Below are positions 1,891-2,504 of a stretch of 8,795 bases of DNA, one piece after another. The notes beneath the pieces are model-generated. The model had not been told where the DNA came from, ran no database searches, and worked only from the letters and a program-made list of their open reading frames with translations. The position numbers were made by a program, and so were the translations under genes. The stretch's first letter is position 1. Each line of letters begins with the position of its first letter. The stretch lies in the IMG/VR virus record IMGVR_UViG_2526164665_000039, one strand, 5' to 3'. Source of the stretch: a virus. Its lineage: Duplodnaviria; Heunggongvirae; Uroviricota; Caudoviricetes.

Positions 1891-2136
1891 TTACATCATA
1901 GTACCGTCAGTTCCGGGCTGAACCGGCTCTGGTTGCTCTACGGCTTGAGGCTCATTCTCCGTGCTGTTTTCAGCCGGAGAATGGCCAACCATTCGGGCCA
2001 GCACTTCATCAACATATGCGTCGATTTGTGCCTCAAAATCCTTGCGAACCTGCGCCTTCAGCACGCGGTTCACTTCTTCAGAATAAAGTGCCTGTTTGAC
2101 AAGCTCTTCAGTAACCGTGCCTTTAATCTCTGGCAT
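1891..2136 (-). CDS. Hypothetical acidic protein (81 aa)
   Basis: ATG at 2136 follows AAGGAG with a 7-8 nt spacer. The product has a helical-looking N-terminus and an acidic, Pro/Glu-rich C-terminus. It sits 35 nt downstream of the 60-aa membrane protein gene, so the two probably form an operon. Confidence 0.55.
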   Translation of the reverse strand: MPEIKGTVTEELVKQALYSEEVNRVLKAQVRKDFEAQIDAYVDEVLARMVGHSPAENSTENEPQAVEQPEPVQPGTDGTMM

Positions 2137-2171
2137 GAATATTCTCCTTTTGCAGGTATATTGCCCCGTTA

Positions 2172-2354
2172 TCAGAGCGGGGTCGGGTCGTTTGGGGATG
2201 ACGGTGCCTGTGCTGTTTTACTGAGTTTTTCAGCTGCCGCATCATCAATTTTACGGCGAATATAATTTCTGATGACCTTATAACCGCCGCTCACCAGATA
2301 TAACGCACTGACCACTGCGCAGAAATAAAGCAGCATTGTATGAACGAATGTCAT
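2172..2354 (-). CDS. Small single-pass membrane protein (60 aa), function unknown
   Basis: ATG at 2354 with an upstream AAGGTAAGG SD-like stretch. The product has one hydrophobic helix (MLLYFCAVVSALYLVSGGY) followed by a basic then acidic tail. Confidence 0.5.
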   Translation of the reverse strand: MTFVHTMLLYFCAVVSALYLVSGGYKVIRNYIRRKIDDAAAEKLSKTAQAPSSPNDPTPL

Positions 2355-2422
2355 ATAACCTTACCTTTGATATTGACTACATAATTCGTTATCGGGTAAA
2401 AACATCGAAGCGACTGATAACC

Positions 2423-2447
2423 ACTCCTTCGGGAGTATTTTTATTTT
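2423..2447 (+). terminator. Plus-strand intrinsic terminator candidate (small hairpin with UUCG loop plus U-tract)
   Basis: ACTCC ttcg GGAGT followed by ATTTTTATTTT. The stem is only 5 bp, so the call is weak. Confidence 0.3.
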
Positions 2448-2466
2448 CCTTTATGGGTTAGGTAGC

Positions 2467-2504
2467 TCCCGCCAGCCATATCATGACCGGCGGGATTTTT
2501 TATT
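2467..2504 (+). terminator. Plus-strand intrinsic terminator candidate
   Basis: 7-bp GC-rich stem TCCCGCC (2467-2473) / GGCGGGA (2489-2495) followed by TTTTTTATT. It is oriented for plus-strand transcripts although the flanking genes are on the minus strand. Confidence 0.4.

Follow-up and report, generated by a model that had tools for sequence, protein, structure and literature searches.

A sialate esterase gene, an antisense Hfq-bound small RNA and the DUF1378/DUF826 gene pair as a probable cargo module of lambdoid and Mu-like prophages

We analyzed an 8,795-nucleotide stretch of viral DNA (Caudoviricetes; IMG/VR record IMGVR_UViG_2526164665_000039; hereafter the window), which is the right end of a Mu-like prophage of Escherichia coli O157:H7 of the Sp18 type. 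Our subject is the segment at positions 1891–2504, where a first-pass annotation made from the sequence without database searches had seen an uncharacterised cassette of two small genes faced by two oppositely oriented terminators. We find that the best explanation of this segment, and one that we consider probable, is a conserved prophage cargo module with an antisense Hfq-bound small RNA (sRNA) that was transferred to a Mu-like prophage. The module would consist of a NanS-p-type esterase gene, the antisense sRNA gene, a DUF1378 gene and a DUF826 gene, in that order. Its home would be the late operon of lambdoid and Shiga toxin (Stx) phages, just before the gene for a class II holin, from which it would have moved into the accessory region between gin and com/mom of the Mu-like prophage. 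The features of the window that bear on this proposal are as follows.

2500–4536, minus strand: NanS-p-like sialate O-acetylesterase gene, the first gene of the module (Pfam SASA, E 3.5e-12; DUF6645, E 5.7e-61)
2467–2504, plus strand: hairpin 2, a conserved intrinsic terminator (folding, covariance model)
2440–2509, plus strand: inferred Hfq-crosslinking peak of the RNA EcOnc37 (published Table S2 coordinates plus an assumed 128-nt offset)
2423–2447, plus strand: hairpin 1, a 5-bp stem with a UUCG loop, followed by an AU-rich run (consensus scan, folding)
2373–2402, plus strand: predicted sigma-70-type promoter of the sRNA, TTGACT-18 nt-TAAAAA (box conservation across spacer variants)
2172–2354, minus strand: DUF1378 gene, 60 aa (Pfam PF07125, PHROG 494, RefSeq WP_000144787.1)
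1891–2136, minus strand: DUF826 gene, 81 aa with a C-terminal MM (Pfam PF05696, PHROG 311, RefSeq WP_001114103.1)

Results

The order of esterase, DUF1378 and DUF826 genes is conserved between lambdoid and Mu-like prophages

The two linked minus-strand open reading frames (ORFs) of 60 and 81 codons reported by the first-pass annotation are present at the stated positions in the ORF list. Its statement that neither product could be recognised did not hold, as both proteins gave strong Pfam matches. The 60-aa product matches PF07125 (DUF1378) with an E value of 1.2e-38 and 131.5 bits against a gathering cut-off of 25, with residues 1–59 aligned to profile positions 1–59 of 59. The 81-aa product matches PF05696 (DUF826) with an E value of 2.1e-15 and 57.1 bits against the same cut-off of 25 (residues 1–54 to profile positions 1–56 of 75) and PHROG 311 with an E value of 2.6e-30; the PHROG families of both proteins are of unknown function. 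In near-identical O157 genomes, RefSeq names them DUF1378 family protein and DUF826 domain-containing protein. Comparison with a second Mu-like lineage gave dN/dS ratios of 0.24 for DUF1378 and 0.15 for DUF826, and therefore both genes are under purifying selection. The two ORFs are real conserved genes of these families. They constitute a known and widespread pair in E. coli prophages whose function is uncharacterised.

We observed two arrangements of this pair behind the esterase gene. The order esterase, DUF1378, DUF826, class II holin, lysozyme and Rz occurs in VT2-Sakai, in a Citrobacter prophage and in two further E. coli DUF1378 variants, and the order esterase, DUF1378, DUF826 and com/mom, without a holin gene, occurs in two Mu-like lineages. 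In prophages PP2 and PP5 of enteropathogenic E. coli (EPEC), a holin gene or an insertion sequence (IS) element comes after the esterase gene, and DUF1378 and DUF826 are absent. DUF826 partners DUF1378 in every locus that we examined except Stenotrophomonas phage vB_SmeS_BUCT708. Compared with the Stx phages 933W and VT2-Sakai, in which the order is NanS-p, DUF1378, DUF826, S pinholin and R, the window has the same gene order, both Pfam families and an antisense terminator at the esterase stop codon. It differs from these phages in that the DUF1378 proteins are only ~53% identical and similarity of the cassette DNA is undetectable, in that no holin or endolysin gene follows, and in that the esterase has a different N-terminus that lacks DUF1737.

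An RNA from the esterase-DUF1378 spacer is bound by Hfq in strain Sakai

A further prediction of the first-pass annotation was a plus-strand non-coding transcript adjoining the 5' region of the membrane-protein gene, and strand-specific reads from published Hfq cross-linking and analysis of cDNA (CRAC) in strain Sakai bear it out. In that study, the spacer between ECs4993 and ECs4994 ranked 57th among Hfq-bound intergenic regions (Tree et al. 2014, PMC4104026), with 15921, 5032, 11303, 91585 and 2303 reads on one strand versus 0, 0, 1, 187 and 0 on the other (PMC4104026, Table S1B). An RNA from this site is catalogued as EcOnc37, an orphan Hfq-binding site with a predicted sRNA, on the Sakai minus strand in prophage Sp18, with detection in 5 of 5 data sets and a Rho-independent terminator nearby (PMC4104026), at coordinates 5077340–5077410 (PMC4104026, Table S2).

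The Sakai spacer is the same as the window spacer except for one T in the terminal T-run. We calibrated the strand columns of the read table with rrnD, omrA/B and csrA versus rrnA/B/C/E/H, fnrS and chiX, whose orientations on the E. coli map are known, and therefore assign the reads to the Sakai minus strand, which is the plus strand of the window. To the EcOnc37 coordinates we added 128 nt, the difference in length between the old and the current Sakai record and an assumed offset, which placed the peak at 5077468–5077538, or positions 2440–2509 of the window. With this shift, EcOnc37 overhangs the esterase coding sequence (CDS) by about the same length as EcOnc52 (about 10 nt), and the placement of the Table S1B reads in the ECs4993–ECs4994 spacer is independent of any offset. 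We conclude that in Sakai an RNA from the window-equivalent spacer and strand, EcOnc37, is Hfq-bound.

The locus, strand and spacer sequence of EcOnc37 agree with those of the window, with the single T noted above as the difference, whereas the window prophage lies at another chromosomal site than Sp18, and EcOnc37 has so far been a catalogue entry alone, its ends, size, targets and family assignment being unpublished. An Rfam scan of the whole window at E values up to 1 gave no match in 1891–2504; the lone hit, at 212–356, is at chance level.

A conserved antisense terminator abuts the esterase stop codon

The two plus-strand hairpins with U-tracts that face opposite to the genes, as the first-pass annotation had described them, were recovered by the consensus scan, folding and a covariance model, and it was also right that no plus-strand coding gene ends at them: the nearest plus-strand ORF ends at 1852. 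Both hairpins lie in the spacer between the esterase and DUF1378 genes. Hairpin 1 (ACTCC-UUCG-GGAGU, 2423–2436; -6.6 kcal/mol, z -2.2) is followed by AUUUUUAUUUU to position 2447. Hairpin 2 has its stem at 2467–2495 (-14.7 kcal/mol as plus-strand RNA, z -2.7), followed by U6-A-UU at 2496–2504, and this U-run overlaps the complement of the esterase stop codon (2500–2502). The consensus scan called six terminator-like sites in 1300–3000 versus 1.5 ± 1.2 in shuffled sequences, hairpin 1 among them. Hairpin 2, which has two internal mismatches, was missed by this simple scan and was recovered by folding and the covariance model.

Every lineage that we examined has, on the sense strand after the esterase stop codon, a run of seven to eight A residues and a GC-rich hairpin containing GCCAG, which read on the other strand is a canonical terminator. 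The 8-mer CCGCCAGC in the 5' arm of hairpin 2 is common to spacer types A and C. Inner stem positions vary between spacer types with complementarity kept, and the outer CCGCCAG is constant. The terminator at 2467–2504 keeps both its orientation and its place against the esterase stop codon across these lineages.

We weighed the alternative that the hairpins act only in minus-strand mRNA, as a stabiliser or processing site at the 3' end of the esterase message, and that their resemblance to plus-strand terminators is incidental. As minus-strand RNA, hairpin 2 forms a 13-bp stem of -23.2 kcal/mol (z -5.7) and is thus stronger than its plus-strand counterpart. Two positions of the stem depart from Watson-Crick pairing: they read G.U in minus-strand RNA and A.C/C.A in plus-strand RNA, and the A.C position is kept in the second Mu-like lineage. 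However, almost all Hfq-bound reads come from the plus strand, the A-run 5' of the stem (the plus-strand U-run) is kept in every lineage while the minus strand has no U-rich sequence after the stem, and the conserved -35 box described below is oriented for a plus-strand RNA. The two roles are also not mutually exclusive. We therefore regard an exclusively minus-strand function as quite improbable. Hairpin 2 may have a second role at the 3' end of the esterase mRNA, which it would stabilise or mark; this is compatible with its role as a plus-strand terminator.

Hairpin 1 is less widely distributed than hairpin 2. In two relatives (L019 and L007) it shows paired changes that preserve a hairpin, and it is absent from the second Mu-like lineage and therefore lineage-specific. 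Its role may be that of a weak first terminator or that of a 5' stem-loop beside a processing site. The latter is suggested by the apparent start of the Hfq peak within the AU-rich run that follows hairpin 1, and by the description of PasA, an EPEC sRNA discussed below, as cleaved from a longer transcript.

A putative promoter of the sRNA lies in the DUF1378 leader

From the conservation of its boxes across spacer variants, we infer an sRNA promoter at 2373–2402, with a -35 box TTGACT at 2373–2378, a -10-like TAAAAA at 2397–2402 and a predicted start at ~2409. A gap of 5 nt separates this -35 box from the DUF1378 Shine-Dalgarno sequence, upstream of which it lies on the opposite strand. TTGAC(A/T) occurs at the equivalent place, ~100–130 nt upstream of the terminator on the antisense strand and ~20 nt away from the DUF1378 initiation codon, in both Mu-like lineages, in the units of PasA and PasC and in nearly all spacer variants of Stx phages (one variant has TTAACT instead). 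An A-rich box follows 17–19 nt after TTGAC(A/T), and the Citrobacter version reads TTTACT-N17-TAAAAA.

Taken at face value, these elements would give an RNA that starts at the promoter with its -35 box in the DUF1378 leader, extends ~95 nt to the terminator and is probably shortened, by processing within the AU-rich run that follows hairpin 1, to a species of ~60–70 nt. Such an RNA would most likely act in trans on host and prophage mRNAs through Hfq, like PasA and PasC. As it would be fully complementary to the esterase-DUF1378 junction, it could also affect the processing of a read-through transcript.

The spacer RNA resembles PasA and PasC in position and architecture

The Hfq-dependent sRNAs PasA and PasC of EPEC E2348/69, which Northern blots have confirmed, are encoded antisense between a prophage esterase gene and the next gene in a '> < >' arrangement. 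They end at the esterase stop codon, have many Hfq-mediated trans partners, and have been given EcOnc51 and EcOnc52 as homologues in enterohaemorrhagic E. coli (EHEC). We mapped EcOnc52 to the 3' end of the esterase gene of Sakai prophage Sp4. As a side observation, prophage PP2 of E2348/69 (locus L003, 2762–3060) carries a second, tandem sRNA-like unit downstream of PasA. This unit has a TTGACA box of its own and a terminator located at the stop codon of the esterase gene, and it accounts for the published 'minor' 236-nt PasA species. The Sp4 esterase gene that is the site of EcOnc52 carries the same unit.

Like PasA and PasC, the window RNA lies just downstream of and antisense to a prophage sialate esterase gene, has an intrinsic terminator (a 3' stem-loop with poly-U) that abuts the esterase stop codon, and is Hfq-bound at the Sakai locus. 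In both, TTGACA or its equivalent precedes the end of the U-run by ~100–130 nt, and the 5' arm of the terminator is formed by GCCAGC, the sequence proposed as the seed of PasA. The window RNA differs in its host element, which is Mu-like whereas that of the Pas RNAs is lambdoid, in being followed by DUF1378 and DUF826 where EPEC has a holin gene or an IS element, and in having an extra hairpin with a UUCG loop.

We compared these loci by profile methods. A whole-spacer profile built without the window lineage matched 2360–2503 on the plus strand with an E value of 8.4e-6. A covariance model built from Stx-phage and Citrobacter spacers of the CCGCCAG-stem class only gave a hit at 2437–2501 on the plus strand with 20.5 bits (E ~0.002, a rough value), against 10.3 bits for the next hit and 4.2 bits for the same site on the opposite strand. 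With this model we also recovered the equivalent antisense site of Sakai, of the second Mu-like lineage and of other lambdoid loci. An earlier covariance model from a mixed alignment was discarded, as it held 3 base pairs only and its stem arms were out of register. The motif common to the window RNA and PasA/PasC is limited to GCCAGC. From this mixed evidence, we describe the window RNA as a positional and architectural relative of PasA and PasC with a shared stem motif.

The DUF1378 and DUF826 products are a small membrane protein and an acidic protein

The description of the products as a membrane protein and an acidic protein, each behind a strong ribosome-binding site, was borne out. The DUF1378 gene has the Shine-Dalgarno sequence AAGGTAAGG at 2367–2359, 4 nt from the ATG at 2354, and the DUF826 gene has AAGGAG at 2149–2144 with a spacing of 7 nt to the ATG. 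Neither the consensus scan nor inspection by eye found a separate DUF1378 promoter on the minus strand within 2355–2500. The DUF1378 product has an isoelectric point (pI) of 9.3 and a hydrophobic stretch at about residues 3–21 (Kyte-Doolittle 19-residue mean 2.0). Its AlphaFold2 (AF2) model is a single helix over residues 2–49, transmembrane and then basic and amphipathic, followed by a disordered tail; the hydrophilic helix and tail are conserved and form more than half of the protein, and the conserved motif is LYF(C/S)..V..LYL.SGGY(K/R)..R. The DUF826 product has a pI of 4.36, with 16 Asp and Glu versus 7 Lys and Arg residues, and its AF2 model has helices at 10–17 and 20–50, with a block-mean confidence score (pLDDT) above 90 across ~21–50, and a disordered, Pro/Glu-rich tail at 54–81.

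Searches of NCBIfam, PADLOC and PDB sequences returned nothing for either protein except three chance-level PDB matches (E 2.6) for DUF1378. In literature searches on DUF1378, DUF826, L0105/L0106 and EcOnc37, no functional study was found; DUF1378 and DUF826 are mentioned as ORFs between nanS-p and S in Stx2a phages.

We asked how far these properties fit the type I toxin-antitoxin (TA) analogy of the first-pass annotation, by which DUF1378 would be a membrane toxin, the plus-strand RNA its antitoxin and DUF826 a regulator. The DUF1378 protein is indeed small (60 aa) with one transmembrane helix, and the sRNA is transcribed divergently from the region immediately upstream of its gene, an arrangement shared with tisB/istR-1, zorO/orzO and shoB/ohsC, in which an sRNA is likewise transcribed away from the region upstream of a small membrane protein gene. 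The sRNA would also pair perfectly with the leader of any read-through mRNA that spans esterase and DUF1378. However, the predicted sRNA (~2409–2504) covers neither the DUF1378 Shine-Dalgarno sequence nor its ATG, from which it is at least 40 nt away, and in contrast to the RNAs of those loci it lacks complementarity to the translation-initiation or standby region. Its trans pairing with the initiation regions of DUF1378 and DUF826 is at chance, as 72 and 59 of 300 shuffles, respectively, paired as well. The parts are not strictly linked as they are in known TA loci: PasA and PasC occur without DUF1378/DUF826 in EPEC prophages, DUF1378 occurs without an esterase gene in BUCT708, and the antisense element is anchored to the esterase stop codon and not to DUF1378. 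In further contrast to these TA loci, the RNA is Hfq-bound, with RNAs at the homologous position being Hfq-dependent and having many trans partners, and DUF1378 has a long conserved soluble part and a near-constant protein partner. With the predicted RNA start clear of the ribosome-binding site, pairing at chance level and parts that occur apart, the analogy fails, and we consider a TA-like module very unlikely.

A role of the pair in abortive infection or superinfection exclusion, expressed from the lysogen, would suit a small membrane protein and partner in a prophage accessory region beside mom/com, and would suit the purifying selection on the pair in Mu-like prophages away from lysis genes. 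Profile searches do not support it: neither protein matched any of 5027 defence-system models (PADLOC-DB) at E values up to 1. In lambdoid phages, moreover, the pair stands in the late operon right before the holin gene, which points to expression at lysis and not in the lysogen. We rate a defence module of this kind as quite unlikely.

A possible function that we favor only tentatively, and as less probable than its being wrong, is that a DUF1378 membrane anchor with an acidic DUF826 partner is an accessory to lysis by a pinholin and a signal-anchor-release (SAR) endolysin. The topology of DUF1378 is probably N-out/C-in with a basic cytoplasmic helix, on which DUF826 would dock. We lean to this guess because the three contexts share class II holin lysis systems, the R protein of Stx phages has a hydrophobic, SAR-like N-terminus, and phage Mu uses a SAR endolysin. 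Lysis cassettes adjoin the pair in lambdoid relatives and adjoin DUF1378 in phage BUCT708. There, a 50-aa DUF1378 homologue (locus L096, 3501–3653) overlaps the end of the gene after the holin and lysozyme genes. It thus sits after holin, lysozyme and an unnamed ORF at the expected place of a spanin gene, which we counted in favor of the lysis role, with no esterase or DUF826 gene nearby, and is the only case seen of DUF1378 alone in a lysis cassette. The window holds no lysis genes by its ORF list or Pfam. A role of DUF1378 and DUF826 tied to the esterase, or in phage exclusion, is also possible.

The position of the sRNA gene raises the further idea that it forms, with the DUF1378 leader, a single control unit that serves as an RNA brake on leaky late or lysis expression. 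In the lysogen, the Hfq-bound sRNA could trigger cleavage of the read-through transcript, or there could be transcriptional collision, and either would uncouple the esterase from DUF1378/DUF826 and, in lambdoid phages, from the downstream holin gene. We consider this unlikely; if true, an RNA brake would be carried with the esterase wherever the module moves.

Evidence that weighs against a transferred module with a Pas-like sRNA

Several observations weigh against our proposal as a whole or in part, in addition to the greater stability of hairpin 2 as minus-strand RNA. The -10 box of the predicted promoter is poor, and the promoter was not called by the consensus scan. Placing EcOnc37 on the window required an assumed shift of 128 nt in its coordinates, the ends of this RNA are unmapped, and Table S2 lists no Northern blot for it (PMC4104026). 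The kinship with PasA and PasC rests on position, architecture and a short stem motif. In nhmmer searches with profiles of the transcribed bodies (Pas only, Stx types only, and both), no hit was obtained at the locus, and we therefore do not claim sequence homology with PasA and PasC. In distant-mode BLAST of the cassette DNA against phages, the spacer was found only in two Mu-like inserts. Lastly, DUF1378 and DUF826 lie far from any lysis gene in the window prophage, which weakens the lysis-accessory idea. We nonetheless hold the conserved cargo module with an antisense Hfq-bound sRNA to be the probable reading.

Setting of the module in the Mu-like prophage

From ~257–261 on, the window matches many E. 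coli O157:H7 chromosomes at 98.6–99.9%, and Sakai prophage Sp18, an annotated Mu-like phage, matches it at ~98%. On the minus strand, baseplate and tail-fibre genes are followed by a gin-type invertase gene, the NanS-p-like esterase gene (SASA and DUF6645), DUF1378 and DUF826, and then, past a convergent plus-strand ORF, by com, mom and the prophage end; the esterase-DUF1378-DUF826 block thus lies between gin and com/mom. The prophage ends at ~257–260, and positions 1–258 are core chromosome near cobU. In Sakai, Sp18 is inserted in sorM, and in strain 2010C-3347 the insertion site is a gene for an Ig-like-domain protein; such differences are expected because a Mu-like phage transposes. The com (1325–1080, minus strand) and mom (1126–389, minus strand) genes overlap as in phage Mu, and their Pfam matches within 389–1325 are Zn_ribbon_Com (3.3e-12) and Mom (4.5e-77).

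An intact esterase CDS of 2040 nt is present in Sakai (ECs_4993) and in the 99.9%-identical strain L001. Compared with Sakai Sp18, the window lacks four single bases (at 2495, 2563, 2912 and 2918), two of them in T-runs, and the esterase gene is therefore split here into ORFs at 4536–2833 and 2900–2544. This split could be real gene decay or a homopolymer sequencing error.

The convergent plus-strand ORF at 1395–1852 is a homologue of Sakai ECs_4996 (PHROG 26524, function unknown, with CxxC...CxxC motifs) and has a frameshift in the window and in RefSeq strain 2010C-3347. Within it, 1546–1590 is an indel-rich hotspot relative to Sakai that holds a perfect 12-bp inverted repeat at 1550–1579. 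One further feature lies between this ORF and the DUF826 gene.

1862–1881, both strands: GC-rich hairpin, 8 bp, between the convergent DUF826 gene (minus strand) and ECs_4996-like ORF (plus strand)

It folds with -19.8 kcal/mol as minus-strand RNA and with -18.3 kcal/mol as plus-strand RNA, and has a weak U-run either way. This hairpin is likely the end of the cassette transcript, and it probably ends both convergent transcripts.

Discussion

Our analysis shows that the DUF1378/DUF826 pair, the esterase gene and the gene for an antisense Hfq-binding sRNA move as a group, which has crossed from lambdoid late operons into Mu-like prophages. The RNA was already known as the uncharacterised entry EcOnc37; what is added here is the link between EcOnc37 and the esterase-anchored PasA/PasC kind of RNA, together with the transfer of the module to Mu-like prophages. 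The result is incremental, in that it describes a known kind of prophage cargo and no new kind of system.

Host regulation is rewired by prophage sRNAs, AgvB, AsxR and the Pas RNAs among them, and NanS-p esterases have been studied as fitness factors of Shiga toxin-producing E. coli. In this setting, the orphan EcOnc37 gains a family context and the PasA/PasC group is widened past the reach of BLAST. Two very common genes of O157 prophages stand out as a pair still to be explained, for which a link to pinholin/SAR-endolysin lysis can be tested.

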